IMG/VR virus record: IMGVR_UViG_3300028888_000047
Coordinates: 1-64,000 of that record
Strand: one strand, 5' to 3'
Length of the DNA stretch: 64,000 bases
Source: a virus
Taxonomy: Duplodnaviria; Caudoviricetes
The notes below the pieces were generated by a model. It was not told the DNA's origin. It did no database searches and was given only the letters and a program-made list of their open reading frames with translations. This document shows positions 16,222 through 37,033 of this stretch, piece by piece; positions within the stretch are counted from its first letter, which is position 1, and each line of letters opens with the position of its first letter. Position numbers and translations under genes: made by a program.

Positions 16222-16572
16222 TTCATATTGCTTATTTTAAGCCTTATATGGCGCGTTTTATTATCTTTCCTTATATGTTTATCATTTAATATATAAAAAC
16301 GTCTTATAATGGCTGAAAATGACTAATTTTATTTTTAAAAATTAGTTTTCAATTTTAAGATTTATTAGCATTAATTTTTTGGCAATATGGATAATAATGA
16401 TTATCTTTGATGTGGGCTTACAGACTCAGCTGGTGAGGAGGCGTATGAATTACATCCAAATTTAATTTCAAATTTTAAGTTTTATTAAGATTAAAAATTT
16501 GGAGGTATCAGGATTAATTATTATCTTTCAGCACAATAATAAAATTAATGTTTAATTTAAATCGTATCAGTT

Positions 16573-17127
16573 ATGAATAAGATGAATTTTTTCGATGTTG
16601 AAAATGTTGTGAATAACTACGCTGCAAATGCTTCTCGCACGCGCTTTGGTCACAATTTTGTGTGCGTTGTATCTTTGAAGAAGGATAGAGTATATGCCGC
16701 AGGCGCACACCTTATTGGCCACGTTGCAAAACTGACGATGGTTCATAATGCAACCTTTCCAAAGTACGATTCAAAGGTTGCAGCCATCACGGGTATGCCT
16801 TGCACCCCAAGACCCTTGAATGGTATGACGTGGCTGATTTACCCTTACATCAAGCAAGCCAACAAGAGTCGCTATCGTTACCTTAACATCTACTATGCTA
16901 TGAGTGATGAAAGAATTGAAACAAAAACCAAATGGCTATGGGATGGTCATCCTGCCACACCACAACAAGTGACAGAGATTGAAAGGTATTTAAAGCCAAA
17001 GGATGCAAGCAGAGAAGTCACAGCAGCGATGTATCAGATAGACCCTGTGAATAGTTGGGATGGGTTCTACTACTTTGGAGAAAGCAAAGAAGAAGCAGTG
17101 AAGGTTTTCGAGGAACTGCAAGCATAA
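16573..17127 (+). CDS. Hypothetical early protein
   Basis: Own promoter and terminator; YLxxY motif similar to 24698..25369. Confidence 0.8.
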   Translation: MNKMNFFDVENVVNNYAANASRTRFGHNFVCVVSLKKDRVYAAGAHLIGHVAKLTMVHNATFPKYDSKVAAITGMPCTPRPLNGMTWLIYPYIKQANKSRYRYLNIYYAMSDERIETKTKWLWDGHPATPQQVTEIERYLKPKDASREVTAAMYQIDPVNSWDGFYYFGESKEEAVKVFEELQA

Positions 17128-17432
17128 AAGGGATGGGGCGAAAGCCCTATCTTTTTTATATATATGAGTACTTAATTAAGTACATATATAATAAGAGGCG
17201 GCTCAGTTGTAGTCGCCTTTTTTTATTGATTATCAACGGATGTGAAACCTTGGTATCCTGAGCTTTCCTACCTCAAAGATAATTATTTTAATTGATAGTG
17301 CCAAATTATTTTATTTAAAAAGTGTTAATAGAATTAATTTTTTTCTTTTTTGAAATTATACGTATAATTACACTATATTATTAAATATAATTTTGTATAT
17401 TTGCAAATAGAAACATTTAAAAGTTAATTATT

Positions 17433-17759
17433 ATGGTTGAAACAAAGCATTTTATTGAGGAACGCAAGAGTAGAGAGTATTTGATTGAAAACGTTATCAA
17501 GGACACTAATAATGTTATTTGTGTTAATGTTATTGATAGAGGACACCCAAATGGCGCAGAAAGATTCGAACTTACTGACAAGGCAATTATTAAAACTTAT
17601 AACAATATAACTGATAGGCATATAACTGATTTAATAGCAAGACCCGCTCAAATATATGATAGACTTGGGGATAGTTTCAGAGCGTTGCCAAAGGGTGTAA
17701 GAGATAGCATACTATCATTGGCGAGGAAGCATCAATCATTAGGTTATAACAATATGTAA
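17433..17759 (+). CDS. Hypothetical early protein
   Basis: Promoter ~17396 and terminator ~17770-17802. Confidence 0.8.
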   Translation: MVETKHFIEERKSREYLIENVIKDTNNVICVNVIDRGHPNGAERFELTDKAIIKTYNNITDRHITDLIARPAQIYDRLGDSFRALPKGVRDSILSLARKHQSLGYNNM

Positions 17760-18014
17760 AACAAAGAAGGAACGTGTCATCATTATTGGTGGTACGTTTT
17801 TTATTGTGTTAATAAAATGTTAAAGCTGCCAAAATATTTGGTTATTTCAGTTTTTATTGTTATCTTTGAAATGGGCAAACAGAAAGAGCTTATGAAGAGG
17901 CGTATGAATACAGTAAACATTCAAATGTTAATAGAATGTTAAAGTTGAAATAATATTTTGTTATTTAAGATATTATTATTATCTTTCGTCATATAAATAA
18001 ATAAGGTATATATT

Positions 18015-18611
18015 ATGAGTTTAAAGAGATTTACCCCTGAAAAGATTGAAAAGTTGGAGCAAAACGAGGTATTCGTATTTGGTTCAAATATACAAGGCGA
18101 ACACGTTGGTGGAGCAGCAACCTTTGCAAATAAAGTGCTTGGTGCTGAAATGGGTTGTGGAGTTGGCTTTTGTGACTTTGCTTGCAAGACCTATGCTATT
18201 CCTACTTGCATCAGAGTATGGGCTGGTACATTAAAGCCTTTTAGGGCAACGAGACCCTTTGAAAACGTTAATCAAATCAAGCCGTTTGTTGACGCTTTCA
18301 TTAGTGATGCGAAGCATTATGCTGACAAGACGTTTTATGTAACGAAGATTGGCTGTGGCATTGCAGGTTTCAAGGTAAGCGAGATTGCAGAGTTGTTCCG
18401 CCCTTGCTTGGATATGGATAACGTAATTCTTCCCGAAGAGTTCGTGAAGTGGTTACTATATCCTGTTGTGATTGCAAACGTCAGCGAAAGACATTGGGTT
18501 AGCGGCGAAGACTATGACGATGATACGTTGATGAAGTTTGTAATGGAGCGTATCGAGCGAAAGAGTGTTGATGATATTTTAGACGAGTTTTACAAAACAT
18601 ATCCATATTAA
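18015..18611 (+). CDS. A1S_2505-like / macro-domain-like phage non-structural protein
   Basis: EVFVFGSN.QGEH.GGAA, TYAIPT and FYVTKIGCGIAGF motifs. Confidence 0.75.
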   Translation: MSLKRFTPEKIEKLEQNEVFVFGSNIQGEHVGGAATFANKVLGAEMGCGVGFCDFACKTYAIPTCIRVWAGTLKPFRATRPFENVNQIKPFVDAFISDAKHYADKTFYVTKIGCGIAGFKVSEIAELFRPCLDMDNVILPEEFVKWLLYPVVIANVSERHWVSGEDYDDDTLMKFVMERIERKSVDDILDEFYKTYPY

Positions 18612-18613
18612 TT

Positions 18614-18808
18614 ATGTGTACGACAATAACATTAGAAGAAAAAAGCGTTGATATTGTTCTTGACGCTTTAAGAGCGTTGAAGAATGAAATGTTAGATAAT
18701 ATGAACTTTAGTGATGAATATCACAATGAGATTGAAAAAGTTGAAAATTTGTTTATAAAGGCAAAGGATTCGTTCAGTGCCGCAAAGGTGATGGCGATGG
18801 AGAAATAG
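18614..18808 (+). CDS. Hypothetical protein
   Basis: Operonic 64-aa ORF. Confidence 0.65.
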   Translation: MCTTITLEEKSVDIVLDALRALKNEMLDNMNFSDEYHNEIEKVENLFIKAKDSFSAAKVMAMEK

Positions 18809-18884
18809 GTTGATATATTGGTTAGACATTATATTTATTATTGGTTTTTAAAACGTGGTGGCTTGTGATAAGTCGCCACTTTTT
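18809..18884 (+). ncRNA. Candidate antisense-to-start-codon segment plus terminator hairpin
   Basis: Reverse complement reads AAAAACCAATAATAAATATA-ATGTCTAACC; followed by GTGATA-loop hairpin and T run. Confidence 0.45.
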
Positions 18885-19102
18885 CTTTTACCATACTTAT
18901 CAACGGATATGAAACCTTGGTATTCTGAGTTTTCCCACCTCAAAGATAATCATTTTCATCCAATCTTGCAAATTTTTTTAGTTAATAACGGTTAATAAAA
19001 TAATTTTTTTTCTTTAACATTTTTTATAATTAAAAATTCGTTTTTTAAAAAATAAATGATTATCTTTCAAGCGTTAAGTTAAGCAATTAAAGAATAAGAG
19101 TT

Positions 19103-19402
19103 ATGACACATTTTTATGAGTTGTATAAGAGAGTTCCAAGAGCAAGACGCAAAACGCTTGCTAAATTCATTCACGAATTGAAGTGCTTATGCGGTCGCAA
19201 GTATCACGCTTGCGTTGTTGAAATGCTCGAAGATTGTGATGAAGATTACGTCTTTATTGAAGCACAAAAAATAATGGGTGATGAATACACAAAGTTTGTT
19301 GATGATGTGACTGAATTGTGTGATTCATATTCTATTCCTCGCAATAATATTTGTGATATGGATTTTCAATTAGAAATTAGTTTATACACTGATATGTATT
19401 GA
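19103..19402 (+). CDS. Hypothetical early protein
   Basis: Promoter at 19061. Confidence 0.75.
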   Translation: MTHFYELYKRVPRARRKTLAKFIHELKCLCGRKYHACVVEMLEDCDEDYVFIEAQKIMGDEYTKFVDDVTELCDSYSIPRNNICDMDFQLEISLYTDMY

Positions 19403-19794
19403 TTATAAGGTTAGTTGGATTTTGTTCTGTTTCTGTCATCTGAAACGTGTGGCTTGAGAAAGTCGCACGTTTTTTATTTTATTAACATTTAAAATTTGGT
19501 GGTTTCAATTTTTATTGTTATCTTTGAAGTGGGCAGCCAGGAAGAGCACGTGAGGAGACGTATGAATACAGTAAACATTCAAATGTTAATTAATTGTTAA
19601 AGTTAAAATAAAATTTTGATATTTCAATTTTTATTATTATCTTTCAGTAGTTAAACAATTAAAAAAGAAAGAAATTATGTTTTTATCATTTATCATTATA
19701 GTAGTTATTGCGGCTTTAATTCACGAAGGAATAAAGAGCCACGGTGATATGAAGTCGTGGGTTGAAAATCTTAAAAATACTGAGGAATAAAATT

Positions 19795-20028
19795 ATGGCA
19801 GTTAAATATATGAATACTATCAAGTTTTCAAAGGAGTTAACGCCAAAAGCTTTTCAAGCAAAGGTTAAAGAAGTTTTGGAAGAAAAAGTGTGCGAAACTC
19901 AAGAAGAAGCCGAGGAATTGGTGGAATCTATGGAGTTTGAATTGGAGTTATATTACGAGAATGGAACTGGCTTGTTGATGTCTATAAGGATTGGAAGACA
20001 AATGACGAGAATGGAACTGGCTTGTTGA
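19795..20028 (+). CDS. Hypothetical protein whose C-terminus is altered by a tandem duplication
   Basis: Start MAVKY; 50-bp duplication near the 3' end. Confidence 0.65.
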   Translation: MAVKYMNTIKFSKELTPKAFQAKVKEVLEEKVCETQEEAEELVESMEFELELYYENGTGLLMSIRIGRQMTRMELAC

Positions 20029-20054
20029 TGTCTATAAGGATTGGAAGACAAATG
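19955..20054 (+). repeat. Perfect 50-bp tandem duplication
   Basis: ACGAGAATGGAAC...GACAAATG twice. Confidence 0.95.
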
Positions 20055-20399
20055 AATCGTAAATAGGTACTTAATTAAGTATAAATATGGATGCTTTAAG
20101 GAGTATAATAGGTATTTTGGAGACCCCAATTGCAAAACGTAAGGGTGTAACAATTTCGGCTGAAGATTGTGCCATTTGGGTTGAGGAACTAAAGAAAGTG
20201 TTAAAAAAATGTTAAAGTAAAGAAAATATTTGGTAGTTCAAAAATAAATTATTATCTTTCAAGTGCTTAAATAAACAAATGATAAACAAAATATGTTTGG
20301 AGATATTCGTGACAGTAGTTAAACAAGAAGGTTGTAACCACCTTTATCTACGGCTGTGATAGGGTAATCAGTATATCAAAAGAATATAATTAATAAGTT

Positions 20400-20669
20400 A
20401 TGTTAGATAGCAAGTTAAAGTTAGACGAAAAAAGGGTTCGCCCTTTATACGAAATAGCAAAAGAGATTCGTTCTGATTGGAAGAACATCTATTTTGGCGC
20501 GAAACATTATCTTGGGGCAATGCTGACGATGAAGTCGATTGACGAGAAATATATGTGTGACGATGGTCGTACAATTGTAAACTATTTCCTCGCAAACGCA
20601 AGCAGTTGGAGGGGTGAAGTTGCTCGAAGAGTTAAGAAAGAACTCAATCAAATGTTAAAGGAAAAGTAA
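20400..20669 (+). CDS. Conserved-looking small phage hypothetical protein
   Basis: RPLYEIA..I..DW...YFLANA..WRG..A...K.EL pattern. Confidence 0.75.
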   Translation: MLDSKLKLDEKRVRPLYEIAKEIRSDWKNIYFGAKHYLGAMLTMKSIDEKYMCDDGRTIVNYFLANASSWRGEVARRVKKELNQMLKEK

Positions 20670-20807
20670 CTCTGTTGTTCTCATAATTCATAATTCGATT
20701 TAAGTTAGACTTTGGTTAAGCGTGTTGCTTGTGATAAGTAGCACGCTTTTTTGTTAAACAAAGTTAAGGAATTTGGTTATTTGGATTTTGTTTTGTATAT
20801 TTGCAAT

Positions 20808-20990
20808 ATATCATTCATACTTGTATTTTTTAGTTAGCATAACTTGGGTGGGTTGGTTCGCGATGAATAGATTCACTATTTTTTAAAAGACAATACTATT
20901 AGTTTCATAAACCATAAATTTGTTTTAAATATTTAATTTTAGGAAATTTGAATAATGAAAGTGGTGGCTTGTGATAAGTCGCCGCTTTTT
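20808..20990 (+). ncRNA. Promoter-driven non-coding unit with two antisense-start/hairpin modules
   Basis: TATATTTG at 20796; no ORF; hairpins plus T tracts ending ~20884 and ~20990. Confidence 0.55.
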
Positions 20991-21419
20991 CTTTTTGTGT
21001 GCATATAGAACAAGGATGGATGTGGAACTTTGGTATCCTAAGCTTTCCCACCTCAAAGATAACAGTATTTTTTCAAATAACCAAATTATTTTTGGCTTTT
21101 AACATTAAATTAACACAGTTGTTAAAATTGGGTTAAAACCTTATTTTTATTTGGAATTTTCAATTTTTATTATTATCTTTCAGCAGTTAAACAATTAAAA
21201 AGAGATTATGAAGAAGTTTAAGATTATTAATGGAAAGAAGCACAAGGCAATAGGTTACGCCTATGATGGAAAACCAATCGGTTGGATTGCTTGTGGTGAG
21301 AACGATTAAAAATAATTTAAAAATAAAGTAGATTATGCTTACAATTCAAATTCAGTTATTATGCATTATAGTAATGTTAAGTCTTATTCATTCCAAAATG
21401 AAATAAAGAATAGAAGATT

Positions 21420-21818
21420 ATGGCAGACGTTAAGGCATTTATCAGCAAGTGGCATGGTCGTACATTACAAGACGATGGCTGTGTAGTATCAAAGGAATTT
21501 AAGTCATTCCAAACAGCATTTGGCAATGCAATGAAGAAGATTGCCGAGAGTCTTGGTGGCGAGGTTGTGAACTACTCAAAGGGTCACTATGACATGAGTG
21601 GTTTCATTAAGAGGGGTGATAAGTATGTATATTTCTCTTATGACAATGCTCTTGGCAATGGTGGAAGGTCACACATTAACTTAAAGTTTTGTGATGGTTG
21701 GCGTTCTCCATTATTGATTAGGACAGCAAAGCATGAGAAGGACTACACTGGTGGTCACAATAACTTTGAGCGTTTTGAACGTTGCGAGACATTGATTGAC
21801 AAATTGTTGAATGAATAA
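21420..21818 (+). CDS. Hypothetical early protein
   Basis: 132 aa; RTA...DYTGGHN. Confidence 0.8.
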   Translation: MADVKAFISKWHGRTLQDDGCVVSKEFKSFQTAFGNAMKKIAESLGGEVVNYSKGHYDMSGFIKRGDKYVYFSYDNALGNGGRSHINLKFCDGWRSPLLIRTAKHEKDYTGGHNNFERFERCETLIDKLLNE

Positions 21819-21973
21819 GAATATATAACAAGGGTGTGTTGAAATGTGGGGATTGCCTTCGAAAGAAAAATCAAACCTTCCATACCCTTGTTTATATTTT
21901 TTCCACAAAATAATTTTGTCAATTGAAAATAATTTCGTATCTTTGCAACAGAAATCAAAAAGGAGATTAGTAT

Positions 21974-22420
21974 ATGGCAAAAGAAAAAAAAGTATTTAAG
22001 AGCAAGTTTTTCCTCGACCTTTTCTATGAGGTTATGGATGAATATTGGCTTGACAAAGACACCTATGTGATTATCTTCCAAGACATGACGGATTCGAATG
22101 GTGACACATATCATCTTGAAGTGGAATATCACAAGGATGAAGAAGAAATCACTTACACTCGTGTCTATGAGTTTGAGAATGTCCATGACATGTTTCCCTC
22201 GCATGTGTTCAAAAAGCAGATTGATGAATACATCTTGAAGAAGGTTGGTGTCATCAATGAAAATGATACCATTACCGAGGCCACCATTGAGGTGAAGTTG
22301 AAGTTGGCAGTTCCCTTGAACATGAGCGTTGGGGAATATGAGAGTTGGCTTGATTGCCTTTCAATCGATGTAACCAATGATGAGAAGGATATAAAGATAC
22401 TTGAAATTAATAAGAAATAA
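21974..22420 (+). CDS. Acidic hypothetical protein
   Basis: Promoter TATCTTTG at ~21938. Confidence 0.75.
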   Translation: MAKEKKVFKSKFFLDLFYEVMDEYWLDKDTYVIIFQDMTDSNGDTYHLEVEYHKDEEEITYTRVYEFENVHDMFPSHVFKKQIDEYILKKVGVINENDTITEATIEVKLKLAVPLNMSVGEYESWLDCLSIDVTNDEKDIKILEINKK

Positions 22421-22631
22421 AGGTTATGGCAAATGAATTGAAGAAGATGCGAGAGATTCGCATTGCGCAAGTTCAAGTTGGACTTGAAGGAGATAAATCG
22501 TGAGTATGACATCGCAAAAGGGAAGTAAGTGTTAAATAGAGTTAATTGCAAGAAAAAGTTGGGTTGATTTTTGGCTAATCCAATTTTTTTTCGTATCTTT
22601 GCACCATCAAACAATTAAACAATAGAAGATT

Positions 22632-23345: not shown

Positions 23346-23637
23346 ATAGATTGATGTTTGGTTTGTCATAAATGATGTTGTTTTTCAAAACGTGTTGTCT
23401 GCGAAGATGGCACGTTTTTTATATGTTAATTAAATGTTAAATCCACCAAAATATTTGGTGGTTTCAATTTTTATTGTTATCTTTGAAGTGGGCAGCCAGG
23501 AAGAGCACGTGAGGAGGCGTTGGTGAACTGTAAATGATTCGAATGTTAATTAAATGTTAATAATACAATATTATTTGGCTATATCATTTTTTATTATTAT
23601 CTTTAAGCATCAATTAAAAATAAAAGAGATTAGAATT

Positions 23638-23850
23638 ATGAAAAAGTATTGGTTATTAAACGTGGCTGGTGTCGGTGGTTATTCCATCATGGTACACTGC
23701 GAAGCAAACACAATTGAAGAAGCAGTTTGCAAAGCAGCAGAAGCAGACCTCTTTGATGATGAAGATGATGCTGAAAGAGCGTGGGGTGAAGAAGCAGATG
23801 ATGATACAATCAAGCATTTCAATAAATATGGTTTAACTCACGAACTTTAA
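23638..23850 (+). CDS. Acidic hypothetical protein (start MKKYW)
   Basis: Promoter at 23598 precedes ATG at 23638. Confidence 0.7.
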   Translation: MKKYWLLNVAGVGGYSIMVHCEANTIEEAVCKAAEADLFDDEDDAERAWGEEADDDTIKHFNKYGLTHEL

Positions 23851-24332: not shown

Positions 24333-24405
24333 GACTCGTTAGCTCAGTTGGTAGAGCACAACACTTTTAATGTTGGGGTCTTGGGTTCGAACCCCAAACG
24401 AGTCA
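24333..24405 (+). tRNA. tRNA-Lys(TTT)
   Basis: Full cloverleaf, GACTCGT/ACGAGTC acceptor, anticodon loop CTTTTAA, TTCGAAC T loop; no encoded CCA. Confidence 0.95.
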
Positions 24406-24697
24406 CGAAGAATTTATTATAAGATTTTTGTTTTGTATTTGAAGCGTGTTGCCTGCGAAGGCAACACGTTTTTCTTTTTATACATATTCATTTCAATTGC
24501 CTCACCTTGGTGAACAACCCTTTCACCTGTTTTCCCACCTCAAAGATAATAAATTTAATCCAATCTTGCAAATTTTTATTGTTAATTGATGTTAAAGAAA
24601 AAAGTTTTTTTATTAACATTTTTTACATATATTTTTTTGGAAATTAGAAATAAAATGATTATCTTTCCAACGTTAAACATTTAAATTTATATTAATT

Positions 24698-25369: not shown

Positions 25370-25672
25370 TGGGTACTTAATTAAGTACGTAGTTGGATTT
25401 TGTAGCATAGGCATTTTAATTTTTTGATTGAAGCACGCTGCTCATGAGAGTGGCGTGTTTTTTTTATATTTATTAACATTAAAAATTTGGCTATTTCAGT
25501 TTTTATTGTTATCTTTGAAATGGGCAAACAGAAGACGCTCGTGAAGAGGCGTATGAATACAGTAAACATTCAAATGTTAATAAAATGTTAAAGTGGGAAA
25601 AATATTTGGTAATATCAAATTTAATTATTATCTTTCAAGCGTTAAGTTAAACAATTAAATAAATAAGGTATT

Positions 25673-25864
25673 ATGAAGATTAAAGGCTTAAAGAAGTGTG
25701 GAATGGTTGCCGAGAAAGTCAAGGGCAAGAACGGCAAGGTGTATGAGACCGGTGAGCAGATTCAGCAGTATGTGGCTCCTGATGGCTTCAAAGGAACGTA
25801 CAATAGATTCATTAGAGAAGCTGAACGCGGCAATCTTCACGGCTGCATAATTGCTTCAAGTTAA
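25673..25864 (+). CDS. Hypothetical protein
   Basis: Promoter at 25629. Confidence 0.7.
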   Translation: MKIKGLKKCGMVAEKVKGKNGKVYETGEQIQQYVAPDGFKGTYNRFIREAERGNLHGCIIASS

Positions 25865-26009
25865 CATATAGAAGTTGTTGGGTACTGAAAGCATTTAAGA
25901 TTAATCCCCAACGCTTCAAGTGTTAAAAAAGTGTTAAAGTCACGAAAAAATTTGGATATATCAAAAAAAATGATTATCTTTGCAACGTAAACAATAAAAA
26001 ACAAATAAT

Positions 26010-26135
26010 ATGAGCAAGAAAAGTTTTAAGAAATCAACGAAATTAAAGCGAGTGATAGCAATCCCCGGACGTGTCATTAAGAACTCCAAGGGAGAGGTAG
26101 TTAAACAGCTTTACAATATCCTCAAAGTAGGATAA
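26010..26135 (+). CDS. Small basic ORF (41 aa, MSKKSFKKSTK...)
   Basis: Promoter at ~25975 and A-rich leader. Confidence 0.5.
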   Translation: MSKKSFKKSTKLKRVIAIPGRVIKNSKGEVVKQLYNILKVG

Positions 26136-26224
26136 AGTTCCAACAAAGGTTAACGGCAAACTAAATGTAGCTAATTAATGCGGAATGTCGGTTAAAGCCG
26201 TTACGGTAGGATAAAACAAACCAC

Positions 26225-26342
26225 AGCGAATGGAACATCGGCCACTCGGCCAATTCTCTAAGTCCCGAGCCGCCACTATCCAAAGCGAATGGAACATCGG
26301 CCACTCGGCCAATTCTCTAAGTCCCGAGCCGCCACTATCCAA
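26225..26342 (+). repeat. Perfect 59-bp tandem duplication
   Basis: AGCGAATGGAAC...ACTATCCAA twice. Confidence 0.95.
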
Positions 26343-26499
26343 GAATGGGGAAACCTACCTTTACCTTTTTTAACTAATTAAAACGTAACAGTGAGCGTAT
26401 GAAGAGAAATAAACCTCCGCCCTAAAGGGATTATATGATATTTAATTAGATTTTTTATGAATACTATGATAGTGAATACAATGAGACGAATAATGATTA

Positions 26500-27007
26500 G
26501 AGGCCGACCCTAAAGGTCTCTCCCAAGCTATCTGAGCAATGAATGAGTTTAGGCTGATAATAGTGCGAGAAAGGCAAACCTCATTGGCAAGGATTGGCTT
26601 ATCAGCGTAATCGATAGCACCGCCCCCATATAAATAATCCGGAGTATTGAAAGAGGGTAGGTGAGTGCAACAAGGTGAATCTCGGCCGGACTGATGGGCG
26701 GAGTACGAGGTTGCACAAATTAATAGGGCGCGTTGGTCTGCCATTTGGCTCTGTTGCGTTGACAACGATGCCATAGATAGGCCGCTCGTTTGCGCCCATA
26801 TTCAAAGGGGTTTAGGGCCGCCACCCATTCGCGCTTTACAAAGCGGTAATTTTTAGGCACGCCCGTTGCACCGCCGTTGCGGCGCATCACCCCACACTTT
26901 TTAACAGGGCATAGTGCCGATATTATTCGGCTCGCGTAATTAATGATGCCCAACAAAAGGGGAATTGCCCCGCCCAACGGTAATATCACACCGCAGGGTT
27001 AGGTCTC
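26500..27007 (+). ncRNA. Large (~510 nt) structured ncRNA, unclassified
   Basis: GC-rich island; the two ends pair (GAGGCCGACCCT with AGGGTTAGGTCTC); many internal helices; abuts a tRNA-like gene. Confidence 0.7.
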
Positions 27008-27207: not shown

Positions 27208-27517
27208 GCAAATACTTTGCTTTCATAATTTGTTAGTTTTTGATTGTTTGACACGAAGGTGTAGCTTAATTGCTACGCCTTTTGTCGTATATATGCTTTT
27301 CGACGACAGAACCTTGGTGATACAACCCTTTTATTTGTTTCCCCACTTCAAAGATAATCATTTTTATTGAATCTTGCAAATTTTTATTGTTAATTGATGT
27401 TAATAACAGTAAGAAAAAATATTTCAAATTTTAAGTTTTTTTAATAATAAAAATTTTGAAATTTGAAATTAAAATATTATCTTTCAGGCGTTAAACAATT
27501 AAATAATATAATAATGT

Positions 27518-27736: not shown

Positions 27737-27744
27737 CTAAAGTT

Positions 27745-28020: not shown

Positions 28021-28334
28021 GGTACTTAATTAAGTGCATATATAATATAAATAATGTACGCGCGAAGGTCAAATGTTAATTAAATGTTAAACCTGAAAAA
28101 AAATTTGGAGAATTGAAAATTAATTATTATCTTTCGCTCAGAAATTAAAAATGAGAATTAAAAAATAGAAAATTAAAACTTAAAAATTAAAATTTGAAAT
28201 GAAACGTTAAAGAAAAGTTAAAATCGAAAAAAAATTTGGAGATTAAAAAATAAATGATTATCTTTCAAGCACAAAATTAAAAACGAATAAAAAATCAATT
28301 AAGTTAAACAATTAAATTATAGGAGATTAAAACT

Positions 28335-29066
28335 ATGGCAAAAAACGTTTGTACTAACAAGAGTTTGATTAAGGCAGAGATTAACCACTATCTGGAACTG
28401 CTTCGTAACGCAATCGCATTCAATGGTCGTTCTCACGTTCCCGTGTACTTCGCAGGCGTTCACAAGGAGGCCATCGAAGCCATCAAGGAAATGGGCATCA
28501 AGGTCGAGGAAAAGGCCGGTCGCTGGACTACCAAGTTCTATGCACCTAAGAAGGGTACTAAGGCGTGGAACACCCTTTTCAACGGCTCAAAGGTTTTGGA
28601 AGAGGCCAAGGCTCACAACGAGGCCAAGGTAGCTGCTGCTAAGGCAGAGAAGGAGGCCAAGGCTGCTAAGGCTAAGGCTAAGGCTGAAAAGAAGGCTGCT
28701 AAGGAGAAGGAGGCCAAGGCTAAGGCTGCTGCTAAGGCAGAGAAGGAGGCCAAGGCTGCTAAGGAGAAGGAGGCCAAGGCTAAGGCTGCTGCTAAGGCTG
28801 CTAAGGCTGAAAAGAAGACTGCTGCTGCTAAGGCTGCAAAGCCCAAGAAGGATGCAACCGTGAAGGCCGCAAAGCCCAAGACCGAGAAGAAGGCTGCTGC
28901 TAAGGCTGCAAAGCCCAAGAAGGAGACCAAGCCAAAGGCTGAAAAGAAGGCTGCTGCTAAGGCTGCTAAGGAGACCAAGCCAAAGGCTGATGCTGCTCCA
29001 AAGGCTGCTCCTGCTCCAACAGCCGAGCCTGCTCCAACAGCCGAGCCTGCTAAGACTGAGGCTTAA
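28335..29066 (+). CDS. Histone H1-like Ala/Lys/Pro-rich protein
   Basis: ~90-aa globular N-terminus, then AKAAK/KPK repeats; strongly biased GCT/AAG codons. Confidence 0.8.
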   Translation: MAKNVCTNKSLIKAEINHYLELLRNAIAFNGRSHVPVYFAGVHKEAIEAIKEMGIKVEEKAGRWTTKFYAPKKGTKAWNTLFNGSKVLEEAKAHNEAKVAAAKAEKEAKAAKAKAKAEKKAAKEKEAKAKAAAKAEKEAKAAKEKEAKAKAAAKAAKAEKKTAAAKAAKPKKDATVKAAKPKTEKKAAAKAAKPKKETKPKAEKKAAAKAAKETKPKADAAPKAAPAPTAEPAPTAEPAKTEA

Positions 29067-29122
29067 ACCAAACAAATGCAAGGGTGGGAAACTACCTGCC
29101 CTTGCTTTATTAAAAAATTAAA

Positions 29123-29437: not shown

Positions 29438-29563
29438 GACTATGTTGCTGCGCTATACAATGGGGCAAATTGCCCCTTATTTTGCCTTGTTTAAGGAAGG
29501 CTTATTTCGTGCGTATGGCCCTCAATATAGGCCAAAACGAACAAAATTAAAAGGGTATCAAAA

Positions 29564-29959: not shown

Positions 29960-30150
29960 ATAAAATGCTGCTCAAAAAAGAGTAGCATTTTTTACATTTA
30001 TTAACACCAAAAATTTGGCGCTTTAATTTTAAATGATTATCTTTGATGTGGGAAAATAAATGAAGGCGTTGTAACACCAAGATGAAAAAATAAGAGAATA
30101 ATTTGGTTTTCTCAATATTTATTTGTATATTTGTAAGAGTTAAACAATAT

Positions 30151-30234
30151 GGCCGCATGGCGGAATTGGTAGACGCGAGGGACTTAAAATCCCTTGGGCA
30201 TTTGCCCGTCCGGGTTCGAGTCCCGGTGTGGCCA
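30151..30234 (+). tRNA. tRNA-Leu(TAA)
   Basis: Cloverleaf with long variable arm, anticodon loop CTTAAAA; own promoter at 30126. Confidence 0.95.
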
Positions 30235-30508
30235 CATTTATTTTTTCATGTTGTAGTTTTAAATGGCTTTCGCTCATCACGAGCGGGAGCCATTTTTCCT
30301 TTCATGCCACTCCCTGTGGAGGAACTCATTAGTATCCTATTGTTCCTACCTCAAAGATAACAGTATTTTTTCAAATATCCAAATATTTTCTTGTGTTTAA
30401 CACTATTTTAACACTTATGTTAATTAAATGTTAAAATTGAAATTTTATTTTGTTTTTAAAAAATAAATGCTTATCTTTCCCACGTTAAACAATTAAATTA
30501 ATATTAAT

Positions 30509-30700
30509 ATGAATAATTGGGTAAAGAAAACGAAGCCAAAGAAAAAAAGGTTGAATAAGATTCAGTTTATTAGGAAATATAAACGTTTTAACATCTTTAC
30601 AAAGGGTGGCGAAAATAGAACCGTAACCGCTCCTTATCCAATGACTTTGGATTATGCAATGTATTATTTTAACGCATTATCAATTGGTTCAGCAGAATGA
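30509..30700 (+). CDS. Basic hypothetical protein
   Basis: Promoter at 30472. Confidence 0.65.
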   Translation: MNNWVKKTKPKKKRLNKIQFIRKYKRFNIFTKGGENRTVTAPYPMTLDYAMYYFNALSIGSAE

Positions 30701-30975
30701 GTAGAAACGCTATTAGGGCTTATAACGAAGCCATTGAAAAGGAAACGAGACAGAAGATTCAAGAGCTTTTGTCAGCAAATAAAATGTCGTATGACTTCAC
30801 CGTTGATTCACAGGGATATATTGAGATAACTGTTGAAAACGGTGATTGGAAACATGACCATATTGCATTAAAGCATATAATGAGAGAGGCGGGATATGTT
30901 CCATTTGGCCGCCATATAATTGAAGATGATGATTGTGGCGATGATTCATTCTCGGCAATTTATCTTTATAGATAA
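30697..30975 (+). CDS. Hypothetical protein
   Basis: GDWKHDH motif; 4-bp overlap. Confidence 0.7.
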   Translation: MSRNAIRAYNEAIEKETRQKIQELLSANKMSYDFTVDSQGYIEITVENGDWKHDHIALKHIMREAGYVPFGRHIIEDDDCGDDSFSAIYLYR

Positions 30976-31026
30976 TGTTCCACGTGAAACAATAATAAAG
31001 CAATAGGTACTTAATTAAGTATAATT

Positions 31027-31872
31027 ATGCAAGGATTAAAAGATTTTAAATATTCAAACGATAAACACATTGATTTGTTTTTTGTCAATTGTGAGGAAAC
31101 TCCGTATAGCCGTAGGCAATTGCTTTCGGAAATGCCAGCGTTTATAAGTTTCATGGAGCGTTTCAATTGTTCATTGGACGAACTGTGTGAGATTCTTGAT
31201 ATGTATGGCATTAGAGATTCAGATTTGTTTGAATATACCATAATTGCAGGAAATTATCCTATTGCCAAAAAATATATTTACACAGTAAAATATGTGCAAA
31301 ATGGATGGCAAGGCCAAAAAAGAGTTGAAACGTATCATGATGTATATTTGACTTGTAATCAATATGTAACTTTATCGCTTGATACTGTTGCAAATGAATT
31401 GATTAAAAGGCATTTTCCTTATCTTGCAGTAACACCATTTACAAAGGTTGAAAAAAGGTTTAAGGATAGTATTAAAAATCTTCCAAAAACATTACTAGCA
31501 AAGGTATCTAATTTAAACACCTTTATGCTATTTGAAAACGATTTAACAATTGGTGATTTAATTAAACTGTATACTGAAGGAAACTATGCTGATATAGAGA
31601 TTGAAAAACCCTTATATTCTGTATATTCAGAACATGGCGATATTTACATCACTTTGGATGAAAATAAAGGTGGTTGGACATTAAATTTATCTTACAGCAT
31701 ATTAGCAAATAAAGATTGGAAAGCCATTGAAGATAAGCACGTGTTTTCTATCTGCTTATATGATGAAAATGGCGAACGAATAAAAGGCAAATGGTTTGAT
31801 GGAAAGCAAAAAGATGCACCATATTTCAATCATCCATTGGTTAAGGAACTAAAGAAAATACTTACAACTTAA
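31027..31872 (+). CDS. Hypothetical protein flanked on both sides by GTACTTAA palindromes
   Basis: 281-aa ORF; palindromes at 31007 and 31877. Confidence 0.8.
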   Translation: MQGLKDFKYSNDKHIDLFFVNCEETPYSRRQLLSEMPAFISFMERFNCSLDELCEILDMYGIRDSDLFEYTIIAGNYPIAKKYIYTVKYVQNGWQGQKRVETYHDVYLTCNQYVTLSLDTVANELIKRHFPYLAVTPFTKVEKRFKDSIKNLPKTLLAKVSNLNTFMLFENDLTIGDLIKLYTEGNYADIEIEKPLYSVYSEHGDIYITLDENKGGWTLNLSYSILANKDWKAIEDKHVFSICLYDENGERIKGKWFDGKQKDAPYFNHPLVKELKKILTT

Positions 31873-32006
31873 TAGGGTACTTAAATAAGTATATTGCGTT
31901 AAATAAATGTTAAAGTTATAATTTTATTTGATTATTTAAAAAAATATTATTATCTTTCAAGCGTAAACAATAAAACAATATTAATAATTAAGGAGAAATA
32001 AATCCT

Positions 32007-32300
32007 ATGGGAAAGAAAAAAGATACAACGGAGATTCTTAACGAACTCAAAGAATATATTGGCAAAGATGGCCAAGTGGCATTTGAACATGGATTCAGGA
32101 AACCAACGTTCAAACTTGAAGGATATAAGTACAAGTGTACAATGGTTTCTTATAAGGTAATGTTCGGATATAAATACTATCCGGTTACCAACGAAAAGAG
32201 AACATGTAATTACCCTTTATCGTTCCTTAGCTATTCAGTGCTGAACACTCTTTTAAAAGCAATTAAAAATTACGAAGAATACTGTAAAAAAGAAGCTTAA
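32007..32300 (+). CDS. Hypothetical protein
   Basis: Promoter at 31951. Confidence 0.7.
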   Translation: MGKKKDTTEILNELKEYIGKDGQVAFEHGFRKPTFKLEGYKYKCTMVSYKVMFGYKYYPVTNEKRTCNYPLSFLSYSVLNTLLKAIKNYEEYCKKEA

Positions 32301-32306
32301 TAAATT

Positions 32307-32522
32307 ATGATAGTAAGCAAAATTAAATGGGAAACTGACGGAAACACTGTAGATTTGCCAAATGAAGTTGAAGTTTCTGATGGGTTAAACGATGACCAAA
32401 TATCAGATTATCTTTCAGATACTTACGGATGGTTGGTTGAGTCATTTTCAGTACCAATGACCAATGATGATATTGACGGTTTCGGCTGTTATGTTAATAA
32501 AGTTGAGGGAATGGTCAGTTAA
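32307..32522 (+). CDS. Small acidic protein
   Basis: IKWETD...LP...ISDYLSD.YGWLV.SF pattern. Confidence 0.7.
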   Translation: MIVSKIKWETDGNTVDLPNEVEVSDGLNDDQISDYLSDTYGWLVESFSVPMTNDDIDGFGCYVNKVEGMVS

Positions 32523-32670
32523 TTAATAAAATTTAACCTAAAAAATTTCTTTTTCTCAATAATTATTTGTATCTTTACAACACGAAATAAAAGGGAGTGG
32601 TTGATGAAATAAACAAACCTCAGTAGGTTTTGATGTTCACCTATTCCGAGCACGAATTAGACGTGCTCAA

Positions 32671-32744
32671 GGGCTCGTAGCTCAGTTGGTTAGAGCAACA
32701 GACTCATAATCTGGAGGTCGTAGGTTCAAGCCCTACCGGGCCCA
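32671..32744 (+). tRNA. tRNA with CAT anticodon (Ile2 or elongator Met)
   Basis: Cloverleaf GGGCTCG/CGGGCCC, loop CTCATAA; lacks initiator features. Confidence 0.9.
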
Positions 32745-33221
32745 CAATTTAGCAAACGCATATAGGTAGTAGCGACTATCTATGTTTGCTATTTCAAGGA
32801 CAAAACCTTTTTTAAATGGGCGTTGCAAACGTAAGGGGAAGAGCGTTTGCAACGTTTTTTATTAACCCATTCAATTAACATTTATTAACTAAAATAATTT
32901 TGATATGTCATTTTTTATTATTATCTTTGAAGTGGGCAACCAGGAAAAGCTCGTGAGGAGGCGTTGGTGAACTGTAAATAGTTCGAATGTTAATTAAATG
33001 TTAAAGTGGTAATTTTATTTGTTTTTTAAAAAATAAATTATTATCTTTCAATCAAAGAAAATAAATAAGGAGATATTAATTATGGCATATAGAGATAAAA
33101 TAACGTTGCATATCTATTGGGATGATGGTGTCACTGTTGAATGCCGTTATTTTCCATCAAAGAAAGCTGCAAAGAAATATGCAAAAGACAATGGTTGCGT
33201 TGGTTATAAAATTGATTAAAT

Positions 33222-33617
33222 ATGGCAAAGGAGTTAGTAAAAAACAAAAACATTGAGAGCAGTATTAACTATGCTGATTCTTTAATGATTGCTATTGGCG
33301 AACTTGAAGCAAAGGCTTTAAGTGAGTGTATGAACTTCTTAAAGGGGCTATTATCTCTTAATGGCGGAAAGATTGAGTTTCACGAATACGATGTAGATGG
33401 CATCCAAACTGATGACAACTGTTTCTACGTTAAATACAACGGTGGGGCGCATCCTGAATATGCTTCAAATTGTTTCTCTGATGTTAAATCGGTAGTCATT
33501 TATGGCGAAAAAATCTATCTCAATATCGAAGATTGTGAGGAATATCCAATAGAAGAACTGGATGACAGGGAAGTTATTGATATGTGCTTATACATTTATT
33601 CTAATTTAATGGATTAA
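33222..33617 (+). CDS. Hypothetical protein
   Basis: YNGGAHPEYASN motif; operonic. Confidence 0.75.
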   Translation: MAKELVKNKNIESSINYADSLMIAIGELEAKALSECMNFLKGLLSLNGGKIEFHEYDVDGIQTDDNCFYVKYNGGAHPEYASNCFSDVKSVVIYGEKIYLNIEDCEEYPIEELDDREVIDMCLYIYSNLMD

Positions 33618-33619
33618 AT

Positions 33620-33841
33620 ATGGCAAAGGAATTAACAAGAACAGGAGTTGTTGGTTTAGAACTGACAAGGGAAGAAGTAAACGATGTCTTGGGAGCAGTT
33701 AAGTCATTAATTCGCAAGGCTCAGTGCCGTGAAGTAAACGAAATTGTGTTAGACCAACTTTCTCACATTGAGGATGAACTTGATGCTGTGGATAGCACTC
33801 TCACTGGTATTTTGGAGTTAGACGAAGATGAAGAGATTTAA
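33620..33841 (+). CDS. Acidic hypothetical protein
   Basis: Operonic ORF. Confidence 0.7.
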   Translation: MAKELTRTGVVGLELTREEVNDVLGAVKSLIRKAQCREVNEIVLDQLSHIEDELDAVDSTLTGILELDEDEEI

Positions 33842-33999
33842 AATATGAATGATAGAAGATATTATGACCCAATTGATGGGCATAGAATTTCCCCCCATTC
33901 AGCCGCAAAAACACGTAGTATGAGGGAGATTAAGAGTGATTTTAACAAGCACTTGCAAAATCATTGCAAATCAAAAGTTAAACGTTAAAGCATATTAAT

Positions 34000-34308
34000 A
34001 TGAGTAAGGAAACAATTAAAATGAATCAAATCCGTATAACGCGGATAGGTCTTAAAGAAGTGCTCAATATGGCTGAGCAAGTGTCAAATTCGCATCGTCA
34101 CACCATTCGAGAGAATTGGAATAAGGAGGATGACAAGGATTGCCGTAAGGCGTTGTATAAGGCTCATAGAGGGCTTGCAAAGAGTCGCGCCATCGTTCGT
34201 GAATGCCAAGCTCAATTGCGTGCCACAAAACGCGAAATAAGAAGGCTTAATTACCTACACGATTTCCGCTTAAATGCCATCGCTGAGCATAGAAGCATTT
34301 TTGAATAA
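34000..34308 (+). CDS. Basic coiled-coil hypothetical protein
   Basis: 102-aa ORF. Confidence 0.7.
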   Translation: MSKETIKMNQIRITRIGLKEVLNMAEQVSNSHRHTIRENWNKEDDKDCRKALYKAHRGLAKSRAIVRECQAQLRATKREIRRLNYLHDFRLNAIAEHRSIFE

Positions 34309-34450
34309 AGTGTTAAAGAAATGTTAAAAATTGGATTTCATTTCTTTATCCAATTTTTTTCTTGTATATTTGCAATGTTGAAAGACAAAAAGATAACGAA
34401 TTAAGTCGCCAAGCGTCTGACCGCGTAAGTCTATATGCTTTCAACATCAT

Positions 34451-34529
34451 CGCTGAGAAGCTGAATATTGGCAAAAGCGCAAGGTGGTAAAACATCTTGA
34501 AACAATAGGTTCAAATCCTATCACAGCGG
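34451..34529 (+). ncRNA. tRNA-like RNA 1 (extended anticodon arm, TGGTAAA tip)
   Basis: CGCTGAG/CACAGCG acceptor, GCT/AGC D stem, ATAGG-TTCAAAT-CCTAT T arm. Confidence 0.6.
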
Positions 34530-34535
34530 CTTATT

Positions 34536-34638
34536 TGTGCTTTACCAAAGAAACGGAGGTAACTCTAGGACAAATGGGGCTTATGGTAAATAAGCTGATT
34601 CTACGGAATCTTCACAGGTTCGAATCCTGTAGGCACAA
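34536..34638 (+). ncRNA. tRNA-like RNA 2 (Tyr-GTA-like, expanded D loop, G33)
   Basis: TGTGCTT/AGGCACA; GCTTA-TGGTAAA-TAAGC; GATTC-TACG-GAATC variable arm; ACAGG/CCTGT T stem. Confidence 0.8.
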
Positions 34639-34644
34639 CTTATT

Positions 34645-34747
34645 TAGAGGATACCAAAGAAGTTGACGCAAGTCTAGGACAAATGGACCTCATGGTAAAT
34701 GAGGTGATTCTACGGAATCTTCAAGGGTTCGAATCCCTTTCCTCTAA
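34645..34747 (+). ncRNA. tRNA-like RNA 3 (paralogue of RNA 2)
   Basis: TAGAGGA/TCCTCTA; CCTCA-TGGTAAA-TGAGG; AAGGG/CCCTT; stems covary with RNA 2. Confidence 0.8.
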
Positions 34748-35128
34748 CAAAAAAACCATATTTAAAACCTCCTTTCTTGAGCGGTTGGCAACGGGTTCAC
34801 CCCCAATGCTGACCGCTTTTCTTGTATATATACATTTGCTGGCTTGCACCGTACAACGGTCTTCTGTGGCCTGGTTTTCCCACCACAAAGATAATCATTA
34901 TATTTTAAATTTCAAAATATATTTTGTTAAAAAAAATTAATTAAAAAAGATTTTTATTTTAAACTTTATTAACTAAAATAATTTGGTAGTGTGTAGTAAT
35001 ATTACTATCTTTGATGTGGGATTTCCAGGCATTCTATATACCACGAGCTGTTGTGCATACAAAAAAAAAAGAGTCAATAGCATTAAGCCATCAACCCTTT
35101 TTGAGTATAATATGAAAGAAGATTTTCT

Positions 35129-35305
35129 TTATTTTATTTCAAGAATTTGTGATACTTGCTCGTCGCCAATAACAAATTCGTTTGCATCAGCATCTTCCGC
35201 TTGCGCCCTTGCAGCATCAAGAGCGTCGCCCTCATTTCTAAACTCTCCTTCTACCACTGTTGTATAGGTGGCATTATAATTAAGTCTAATTGTATATTTT
35301 GCCAT
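35129..35305 (-). CDS. Small acidic protein (58 aa, MAKYTIRLNY...)
   Basis: Manual translation; last gene of the minus operon. Confidence 0.65.
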   Translation of the reverse strand: MAKYTIRLNYNATYTTVVEGEFRNEGDALDAARAQAEDADANEFVIGDEQVSQILEIK

Positions 35306-35329
35306 AATTCGATTTAGTTTTTTTTCTAG

Positions 35330-35683
35330 TTATTTCCAAACTGCTTTTTCCTTATAATGCTTTGTTTTGGTATCATATTCAATACGAACACCATCACGCG
35401 CCATTTCATTGAAAGTCTGCATTATCTCATATATGGTAATGTCATCCTTTTCTTCAAGGCCCATGTAATCTCGGATTTCATCCTGCATTTCGCTTGATTT
35501 ATTAACAAATTCCACCTTTGGGAATTTCATGCAATACTCGCTGCCACGATAATTTGGGCAATAAGCGAAGCCATCATAAATCTCAAATTTAAGTTTGTTC
35601 TTAAACCCAAGAATTGTAAGCTCCTTTTCTGCAATCATTTTGCCGTGTAGCAACTCTAAATCTTCTTTACTAATTCTTTCCAT
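35330..35683 (-). CDS. Hypothetical protein
   Basis: 117 aa; promoter at ~35722 (reverse). Confidence 0.7.
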   Translation of the reverse strand: MERISKEDLELLHGKMIAEKELTILGFKNKLKFEIYDGFAYCPNYRGSEYCMKFPKVEFVNKSSEMQDEIRDYMGLEEKDDITIYEIMQTFNEMARDGVRIEYDTKTKHYKEKAVWK

Positions 35684-35784
35684 TATATATTTAATTGATT
35701 AAAATTATTAATGTATGTAGCAAATATACAAAAAAAACGCGATAGAAACAAATCTACCACGTTAAATAATGTTAATCAACTAAA

Positions 35785-36438
35785 TTAAAATTCCAATACT
35801 ATATTACTTAATAACTCATTATATTGTTCTTTGGTTATATATCCAATGCCACAAGCAGTTCTAAGATGCCTTAACTTGTATGTTTGATTCCAAGGCGCTT
35901 TAACCACTTTATAATCCTCAACAGCTTTCCAATTACTAAATCTAGGGTTTAATTTGTATATATTCTTACTGGGAGCAACAGCAGCACCATAGCGCTCGTA
36001 TTTCATTTTGCATACAAATACATACTCATATTTGGCAACCTTTTTTTCAGCCATTTTCTCCAATACAGCGTTTGATATTCCACCACCGACAGGATTTGTA
36101 CGTGTAATTGTTAAGTTAAATTTTCTACTTAATTCAGCAGCCATTTCCTTCCATTTTCTGCCATGCGAAGATGTATCTTTAATACCTTTATACTTGATAT
36201 AATAATGCAACATTTCATGCACAATTGTATCAATATAAGATGCAATAGGACGGTCATAAAATGTGCTAATACGTATGGTATAACCCATTGATGTATAACC
36301 CAATCTCTGCCATTTAAATTGGCCCAACATACGTCTTGTCTGCATCAATTCAAATGAAGGAACAGGCAATTCATTATTAAATGCCTTTTCGTTCCATTCA
36401 TTGAATAACTCTTTTATTTGTGGAATTGTTATTGACAT
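35785..36438 (-). CDS. SprT-like zinc metalloprotease
   Basis: WN..AF...HEMLH...SHG..WK. Confidence 0.8.
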   Translation of the reverse strand: MSITIPQIKELFNEWNEKAFNNELPVPSFELMQTRRMLGQFKWQRLGYTSMGYTIRISTFYDRPIASYIDTIVHEMLHYYIKYKGIKDTSSHGRKWKEMAAELSRKFNLTITRTNPVGGGISNAVLEKMAEKKVAKYEYVFVCKMKYERYGAAVAPSKNIYKLNPRFSNWKAVEDYKVVKAPWNQTYKLRHLRTACGIGYITKEQYNELLSNIVLEF

Positions 36439-36647
36439 GATGGGTTCGCTAATAATAACTTGTGAAAACTTTCCTTTAATGTTTTTTTATTTCCATTTGC
36501 AGGAACCGTAATCTCCATGATGGTTTTTTCATCATCATCAATTATTTCACTACTCCCATTGAAATGAATCATAGTGTCTTGTGGAAGGCTCTCAGCCATT
36601 TTAAGCCCTTCCAACAGCATTTTCTTTGTTAACCATACATTTGCCAT
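36429..36647 (-). CDS. Hypothetical protein
   Basis: Promoter TATCTTTC at ~36681-36688 (reverse). Confidence 0.65.
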   Translation of the reverse strand: MANVWLTKKMLLEGLKMAESLPQDTMIHFNGSSEIIDDDEKTIMEITVPANGNKKTLKESFHKLLLANPSCQ

Positions 36648-37033
36648 AATATAAAACCTTCTTTAATTATTTAACTGCGTGAAAGATAATAATAAAATAT
36701 GTAATAACCAAATTTTATTTCAACTTTAACATATTATTAACATTTAATGTATACCATATTATATTACATAATAAAATGAAGTTAAATATATTCTCCTCCA
36801 TATCAAGCTCAATTGAAAATCAATAAGTTACAACGCCGGATGTGAAATATCTGTTTTGCCCACTCCAAAGATAATAATAATTTACCAAATAACCAAATTA
36901 TTTTTTCACTTTAACATTTATTTAACACTTTATATACTATATGTTAAAGTTATGTTAAATGCTGATATTTATTTGTTTTTTTTAAAATAAAATGTTATCT
37001 TTGCAAACGAAATAAATAATAATGTATTTAAAT

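Follow-up and report, generated by a model that had tools for sequence, protein, structure and literature searches.

What is the function of a short motif that recurs sixteen times among the small genes and tRNAs of a large phage genome, with its copies pointing alternately along one strand and then the other? The question is raised by the window considered here, the initial 64 kb of a virus record of 317,464 bp (IMG/VR record IMGVR_UViG_3300028888_000047) that is estimated to be 95% complete and that belongs to a sheep-gut jumbo phage with Bacteroidota-pattern promoters. The sixteen repeats are copies of a promoter module of about 120 bp. They are best filed as a variant of phage promoter-terminator cassettes in a Bacteroidota setting rather than as a DNA-flipping switch, and the features that distinguish them are an added non-coding unit, two orientations, a 119-120-bp lattice and an invariant start. 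The explanation that we favour, and consider probable, is that the modules are bidirectional promoter units whose short non-coding RNAs insulate and tune the cassettes on either side, and which also provide patches of homology.

A first-pass annotation of the window had described sixteen strictly alternating inverted elements, each built from an eight-base core, two variable bases and RTRGG. A search with this exact 15-nucleotide (nt) pattern finds 16 matches in the window, eight per strand, at the same coordinates (+16402, -17281, +17861, -18948, +19519, -21061, +23478, -24548, +25510, -27356, +30038, -30359, +32922, -34893, +35006 and -36873), whereas 0.01 matches are expected in shuffled sequence. 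The orientations alternate strictly, which for eight copies of each has a chance probability of 1.6e-4. The entire 317,464-bp record holds the same 16 copies and no further one, all of them within 16.4-36.9 kb. The bare 8-mer core is commoner, with 30 copies in the window, because ordinary promoters share it. A relaxed genome scan, in which the core was written as TAnnTTT followed by G or C and one mismatch was allowed in GTGGG, gave five extra hits, four of them without a -33 box and none with the upstream TTAAC boxes that characterise this promoter family. A promoterless remnant of the motif lies at 15987 on the plus strand (15960-16010), with one mismatch and the start GTAGT, abutting the T tract of a terminator; it may be a decayed module.

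The invariant 8-mer is TAnnTTTG, the -7 box of the Bacteroidota primary sigma factor, and a TTTG -33 box lies 19-20 nt upstream of it in 16 of 16 copies, while the majority carry further upstream a double TTAAC-type box, the two members being about 11 bp apart. The first-pass annotation had noted that promoter boxes accompany the elements, and it was right to do so, although it did not recognise that the core is itself the -7 box. The consensus for promoters of sigma-ABfr comprises TTTG centred at -33, TAnnTTTG centred at -7 and a purine start (PMC7366714), and all sixteen copies match it in the -33 TTTG, the AT-rich spacer, the TAnnTTTG at -7 and the purine start. The phage departs from this pattern by adding the double TTAAC box at about -65 to -40, and the special class represented by the sixteen copies departs from it again by adding an invariant transcribed GUGGG, which is unseen behind promoters in the bacterial genome matches listed. 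Across a comparison set of 59 modules from at least eight contigs, TAnnTTTG reaches 2.0 bits per position. A regular expression for the full architecture (double TTAAC, -33 and -7 boxes) matches 61 sites in the genome, against none in a reversed-sequence control, which identifies the core as the -7 box of a promoter class that is general in the phage; most of these sites lie at 10-40 kb and the rest along the minus strand to 230 kb, with one at 316 kb. The special modules have this grammar in common with about 45 ordinary gene promoters of the phage, from which they differ only downstream, where RTRGG is followed by a geneless stretch, whereas ordinary promoters lead through an A-rich leader of about 25-30 nt into a start codon. 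Ordinary promoters (17987, 19645, 21181, 25636, 30479, 31958 and others) have a conserved leader of their own before the start codon, approximately R-C-G-U-U-A-A-A-C-A-A-U-U-A-A-A, which is also seen at 10865 and 19398 in a 401-kb relative of the phage, and in most ordinary promoters of the region in the 317-kb phage the -7 box ends in C rather than in the consensus G. Three loci in the genome, at 187, 210 and 245 kb, match the sigma-70 family, two of them as family members and one with a score under the family cut-off. The promoter grammar, the sheep-gut habitat and a phage tRNA-Met close to the tRNA-Met of crAss-like phages together point to a host among the Bacteroidota.

Given the centring of the -7 box, the purine of RTRGG is the predicted +1, and the RNA would begin GUGGG and continue with N-AAAC. 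In every one of the 59 modules a purine stands three positions past the -7 box, and the predicted positions +1 to +3 read GUG or AUG in 57 of them. Over the set, positions +1 to +5 have an information content of 1.8-2.0 bits and positions +6 to +10 one of 0.7-1.2 bits; beyond +12 the value falls to about 0.1-0.6 bits, and the tails are nearly free to vary. These tails are 45-60 nt long, and their end is marked either by the upstream boxes of the next promoter or by the preceding terminator, with its A tract and hairpin. Purines make up 62% of the tail sequence and its GC content is 50%, whereas ordinary leaders have 21% and the genome as a whole 33%; short sequence modules are reused among the tails. 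Within one genome the tails group into a few near-identical families, and corresponding positions in the two large phages carry different tails, a pattern that suggests exchange among copies. The earlier description of a purine-rich non-coding tail made of shuffled modules consequently stands, but the statement that the tail is present instead of a gene does not, since six of the seven plus-strand copies that point with the genes precede an ordinary promoter and its gene. Comparison with shuffled sequences revealed no conserved RNA fold (mean z-score -0.33, with 3 of 59 tails below -2), no Rfam family overlaps the tails at the gathering score or at E values up to 5, and no near-perfect complement of the 12-mer start was found elsewhere in the phage. 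The tails were also considered, and rejected, as Shine-Dalgarno decoys: GGAG or GAGG occurs in 29% of tails and in 33% of shuffles, and the energy of pairing with the anti-Shine-Dalgarno tail is only slightly better than for shuffles. On the minus strand at 147-174 kb there is a further RNA family, with the start AGG-G/A-AAC followed after two or three bases by ACAGCAA; it is loosely like some tail starts of the 401-kb relative (GGGGAAC-AGCAA/AGCGAA), a resemblance that could be chance.

The position of the modules is as regular as their sequence. From 16.5 to 34.8 kb the plus strand carries the genes, each small operon closes with a plus-strand intrinsic terminator, and a special module stands directly behind almost every terminator of this small-gene and tRNA region, a layout that agrees with the earlier suggestion that the elements bound cassettes of genes, tRNAs and terminators. 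Among the seven gene-sense plus copies, six are followed at 119-120 bp by an ordinary promoter, with a -7 box ending in C or A, and then by a gene; for the seventh, 30038+, the ordinary promoter is 88 bp downstream, ahead of tRNA-Leu. The antisense copies point across about 45-65 nt to the hairpin that terminates the preceding operon, and stand back-to-back with the promoter of the next operon at a spacing that is mostly 119-120 bp and in two cases 129-130 bp. The 119-120-bp spacing holds in most modules with a detected partner promoter, tandem and divergent alike. In total, eight of the 16 copies are directed against the genes. A mirrored arrangement is seen at 35006-36873, where the genes and terminator of the cassette occupy the minus strand and its two modules exchange roles. 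Terminator hairpins in the region (18855-18879, 20957-20989 and 19442-19473), together with many in the 401-kb relative, form a repeated family with near-identical stems and loops, and the repeated unit at cassette borders is accordingly a terminator plus a module. No hairpin was found between the sense copies and the next promoter, so that their transcripts would run into that promoter and its gene. Set beside small-RNA genes that end in a terminator, the modules have a promoter of their own and lack the same-strand hairpin with a U tract.

Scans of sequence collections with short patterns returned mostly single chance matches, and the true relatives are the 401-kb phage, an IMG/VR record reached via a protein of the region, and a handful of metagenome contigs. 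In the 401-kb relative there are 24 modules confined to one stretch of about 20 kb; their -7 box differs slightly, their start is again GUGGG and then N-AAAC-AG, and the metagenome contigs add 19 modules with the same start motif. The element singled out by the first-pass annotation is thus conserved in relatives: genes of the two large phages have 67-79% nucleotide identity, yet the start motif is kept. The usual layout in the 401-kb relative is a back-to-back pair of special modules with an ordinary promoter about 120 bp further on; the 317-kb phage usually lacks the sense partner of such pairs, and 34893-/35006+ is its only special/special back-to-back pair. Alternation is a consequence of this arrangement of sense and antisense modules, and it is strict in the 317-kb phage only. 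In the 401-kb relative 19 of 23 neighbours are oppositely oriented (p about 9e-4), with four neighbouring pairs of sense copies, while contig L261 has two adjacent sense copies and contig L191 two adjacent antisense copies. Strict alternation, as first described, is correct for the eight and eight copies of this phage and fails as a general rule, although the layout behind the tendency is conserved.

Judged from gene positions in the two large phages, the cassettes move over evolutionary time. In the relative, the homologue of 19103-19402 occupies the slot held here by the unrelated gene 17433-17759, 31027-31872 has its homologue elsewhere in the region, in a bounded cassette of its own, and several cassette genes are unique to one phage. 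The presence of some genes in different cassette slots bears out the choice, made in the first-pass annotation, of the PeSL cassettes of T4-like phages (repeats of an early promoter and a stem-loop) as the nearest analogue. Exact crossover points cannot be placed because identity is only 67-79%. A supposed replacement of the first cassette was withdrawn when a direct search found an orthologue that is 31% identical. A 117-amino-acid protein, encoded at 48514-48864 on the minus strand here and at 14011-14364 in the 401-kb relative, is 77% identical between the two; its gene lies inside the module region in the relative and, in the 317-kb phage, 12 kb outside it and on the other strand.

The individual modules can be followed along the window. 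Module 1 (16337-16466, plus strand, sense) has its -7 box from 16402 and its predicted +1 at 16412, with an ordinary promoter 120 bp downstream. Module 2 (17217-17346, minus strand, antisense), whose -7 box spans 17281-17274, fires at the plus-strand terminator 17193-17221, and module 3 (17796-17925, plus, sense) lies directly behind the terminator 17767-17802 and 119 bp ahead of an ordinary promoter. Module 4 (18884-19013, minus, antisense) faces the terminator 18855-18879, and module 5 (19454-19583, plus, sense) stands behind the terminator 19442-19473, again with an ordinary promoter 119 bp downstream. The next antisense copy, module 6 (20997-21126, minus), faces the terminator 20957-20989 and is back-to-back with an ordinary promoter, and its sense successor, module 7 (23413-23542, plus), follows the terminator 23387-23418 and precedes an ordinary promoter by 120 bp. 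Module 8 (24484-24613, minus, antisense), also back-to-back with an ordinary promoter, faces the terminator 24441-24472 after tRNA-Lys; module 9 (25445-25574, plus, sense) is behind the terminator 25430-25461, with an ordinary promoter 119 bp downstream. At the 3' end of a cassette finishing in non-coding RNA genes lies module 10 (27292-27421, minus, antisense), back-to-back with an ordinary promoter. The tRNA-Leu gene is enclosed by module 11 (29973-30102, plus, sense), which is behind the terminator 29962-29991 and has the tRNA-Leu ordinary promoter 88 bp downstream, and by module 12 (30295-30424, minus, antisense), which faces the terminator 30261-30295 behind tRNA-Leu and is back-to-back with an ordinary promoter. 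Module 13 (32857-32986, plus, sense) is downstream of tRNA-Met and 120 bp upstream of an ordinary promoter, and module 14 (34829-34958, minus, antisense) faces the hairpin behind a tRNA-like array and is back-to-back with module 15. The last two serve the mirrored eighth cassette: module 15 (34941-35070, plus) takes the antisense role and faces the minus-strand terminator 35102-35066, and module 16 (36809-36938, minus) takes the sense role, upstream of the minus-strand genes 36647-35330.

Annotation of the surrounding proteins relied on Pfam and PHROGs searches with about 27 proteins. No Pfam family is assigned to eighteen of the 20 proteins encoded in the region or next to it, and the sole Pfam match above the cut-off among these 20 is a SprT-like protein in the mirrored cassette (35785-36438, minus strand). 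In the left flank, on the minus strand, genes match PHROGs families annotated as a DNA helicase (5824-7605), a nucleotidyltransferase (9124-10401) and a tRNA-His guanylyltransferase of the Thg1-like type (11801-12625); the other Pfam and PHROGs matches are to families of unknown function. The left-flank genes, taken with the many tRNA and tRNA-like genes, suggest that the phage invests in tRNA supply or repair.

The region is transcribed, and its cassettes are expressed at very different levels. The RNA evidence consists of assembled contigs from two metatranscriptome runs of one sheep-gut sample, in which 76% and 60% of the sequence words sampled between 16.3 and 26.2 kb are present. The depth of the RNA contigs ranges from 7 to about 3,400 across the cassettes, compared with a DNA run of the probable source sample that is flat near 100 except in bins over three tRNA genes, which also collect other organisms. 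Two stretches, 25638-26971 and 28306-28972, have an RNA depth of about 1,800-3,400 as against 7-90 elsewhere in the region; the first contains no credible open reading frame and the second overlaps one of 243 amino acids. RNA contigs end in adaptor, in constant orientation, at 23676, 24315, 24708, 25410, 28363 and 29950, an indication that the library was stranded and that plus-strand fragments with fixed ends were abundant.

How might such modules work? As read from the sequence, they combine a complete host-type promoter grammar, a conserved predicted start and a fixed lattice beside terminators, and the explanation that we favour builds on this combination. A sense copy, as the upstream member of a tandem pair, would give the next cassette a second mRNA with a long leader. 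An antisense copy would be transcribed for about 55 nt before its RNA polymerase met the terminator hairpin of the previous cassette from the wrong side, and the convergent RNA would overlap the upstream mRNA in its 3' hairpin and in whatever read-through occurs. RNA pairing, along with head-on polymerase traffic, could then insulate and tune neighbouring cassettes in the manner of lambda oop on cII. The oop RNA and similar phage RNAs are short convergent antisense transcripts that overlap the 3' end of an mRNA, and the antisense modules resemble them in having their own promoter just downstream of a gene, with predicted transcription toward the 3' end of its mRNA. They differ in number, with 8-10 units per genome that share a 5' sequence, and in that the first 50 nt or so lie beyond the terminator of the mRNA; the overlap, and any effect of RNase III, are putative. 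The shared start would let the phage handle the special class apart from its ordinary promoters, and the near-identical modules likely serve as homology patches for cassette reshuffling over evolutionary time, as PeSLs do.

Several points weigh against this explanation. Two of the 16 copies start GUAGG. In the antisense direction an A tract precedes the hairpins and few U residues follow them (0-5, and mostly 0-2, in the next 8 nt), so that the hairpins are not canonical terminators for the antisense RNAs. The RNA contigs are broken at repeats and carry no information on start, strand or RNA end. Insulation, RNA pairing and recombination are roles suggested by layout and analogy, and the assignment of the host to the Bacteroidota rests on promoter grammar and habitat. 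A bolder proposal, which we regard as possible but doubtful, is that the modules represent a new class of non-coding unit, in which dozens of short RNAs per genome, produced in both directions at cassette borders, would share a GUGGG-N-AAAC 5' handle; a phage or host factor would read the handle to control the decay, read-through or silencing of early cassettes, and the 119-120-bp lattice would be part of the mechanism.

Other explanations account for parts of the evidence. The upstream part of a special module is the same as that of an ordinary promoter, and for this reason the start region is the only handle for class-specific control. It could accordingly be a loading or recognition site for a regulator, on DNA or nascent RNA, comparable to nut, put, ops or Q-type sites and governing terminator read-through or the shut-off of the class. 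Conservation between the diverged phages of +1 to about +12 only, while the remaining tail turns over, speaks for such a site, as does a region packed with intrinsic terminators. The nut, put and ops sites are leader elements for processive antitermination, and lambda has nut on both arms of a divergent promoter pair; the modules are similar in placing a conserved element just downstream of early promoters, in a terminator-rich region and on both arms of a divergent pair. They are dissimilar in that half of the copies point away from genes, that the tails have no conserved hairpin of the boxB or put kind, and that no NusG-family gene was found in the 317-kb genome (the search did not extend to N- and Q-type factors). 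If the antisense copies caused antitermination, moreover, long antisense RNAs without obvious purpose would result, and we consider a regulator site unlikely. The same conserved 5' dozen nucleotides, present in 59 copies, would suit trans-acting small RNAs or decoys with a single-stranded 5' handle that pairs with, or is bound by, a target in host or phage. The strong promoter of each module, the unstructured 5' region and the hairpin that follows in antisense copies are all in keeping with this, and so is a constraint at the level of nucleotides rather than peptides, which is indicated by the recurrence of short nucleotide modules in all three reading frames. The antisense-direction hairpins lack a U tract, however, and the sense copies have no terminator of their own. 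Neither a near-perfect complement of the 12-mer in the phage nor an Rfam match to the tails came to light, and a scan of bacterial genomes for host use of the leader gave scattered chance matches, six of which, among those listed, have a -7-like box, all in non-promoter sequence. Small RNAs acting in trans are, in our view, improbable.

The GUG or AUG at the predicted start of 57 of the 59 modules invites the idea of leaderless micro-genes, whose peptides, 3-40 residues long, would start with Met-Gly-Lys/Asn-Gln. When variable sites among close paralogues are tallied by hand, 16 of 28 are at the third position of a codon, a weak and lone hint of coding, and several paralogues keep identical peptides through synonymous changes. 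A micro-gene reading was nonetheless rejected: frame 1 has no advantage in openness over frames 2 and 3 (medians of 16, 17 and 19 codons), 13 of the 59 copies stop within 8 codons of the predicted +1, conserved nucleotide modules turn up in every frame, one-base insertions and deletions leave the downstream nucleotides unchanged, and two copies start GUA. Transcripts with 5' untranslated regions shorter than 10 nt are also rare in Bacteroides, at about 3.7% (PMC7366714), and micro-genes of this kind appear very unlikely. A role for the short transcripts in R-loops, which would prime replication or stimulate recombination at cassette borders, is hardly easier to accept. Origins of this type in T4 have a layout similar to a promoter plus about 55 bp, and the GGG cluster at the very start and the purine-rich tails would fit. 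GGG clusters are, however, depleted past the first five bases relative to shuffles (z = -2.9), the antisense tails of the 317-kb phage have no excess of G over C (0.20 and 0.19), which counts against the suggestion of primer or R-loop RNAs in the first-pass annotation, and sixteen to twenty-four origins in 20 kb would be unprecedented. That annotation had also proposed sites of inversion or exchange, so that cassettes or promoters would flip between opposed copies by site-specific recombination. Inverted copies do flank each cassette, one cassette is mirrored relative to the rest, and invertible promoters are reported to be common in Bacteroidales; the modules are like such invertons in their Bacteroidota setting and in placing a promoter in either orientation relative to neighbouring genes. 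They are unlike them in that no flanking recombination repeats, recombinase gene or dual orientation at one site was found. The absence of a recombinase, first remarked for the window, extends by profile search to the whole 317-kb genome, in which no Resolvase or Phage_integrase family gene, and hence no serine or tyrosine recombinase, was detected. Contigs from about 100x DNA of the source sample gave no credible inversion joint, only repeat-induced joints with sides of 25 nt or less, and a single joint on opposite strands proved to be a multi-mapping artefact, from a contig whose sequence continues beyond its stretch and into a different promoter copy. Three phages (the 317-kb phage, the 401-kb relative and contig L261) have the mirrored eighth cassette in the same arrangement, which is thus ancient and fixed. 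Active flipping is unlikely for these reasons, the conserved core is simply a promoter, and of all the explanations this one seems to us the least credible.

The modules have their closest parallel in the PeSL elements, which produce cassette reshuffling of the pattern seen here (PMC2839356, PMC4122927). Like PeSLs, the modules are compact repeated units in which a strong early promoter of the host type is combined with a stem-loop terminator, and like them they cluster in a hyperplastic region, among small genes whose function is unknown, and bound transcriptionally isolated cassettes. Differences in cassette content or order between related phages fall at PeSL elements and may do so at the modules, and recombination between PeSL elements yields mini-circles. 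PeSL promoters are of the sigma-70 type (-35/-10) and co-oriented with the genes, whereas the modules described here are of the Bacteroidota type and nearly half of them face back at a terminator. The modules also differ in their predicted non-coding transcribed stretch of about 55 nt with its invariant start, and in the 119-120-bp lattice that they form with ordinary promoters.

Almost nothing is known of the transcription programmes of jumbo phages that infect Bacteroidota. The region examined here provides a clean promoter grammar for what is probably one of them, consisting of an upstream double box, -33 and -7 boxes and a class-specific start, together with a regular 119-120-bp lattice and 8-10 predicted convergent transcription units per genome. 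The consensus modules may serve Bacteroidota genetics as compact, strong and insulated promoters. Should the shared 5' handle prove functional, a regulator by which early transcripts are divided into classes would be indicated; if it is not functional, the modules are still a second, independent example, in another phage group and another host phylum, of promoter-terminator cassettes by which accessory genes are organised and reshuffled.

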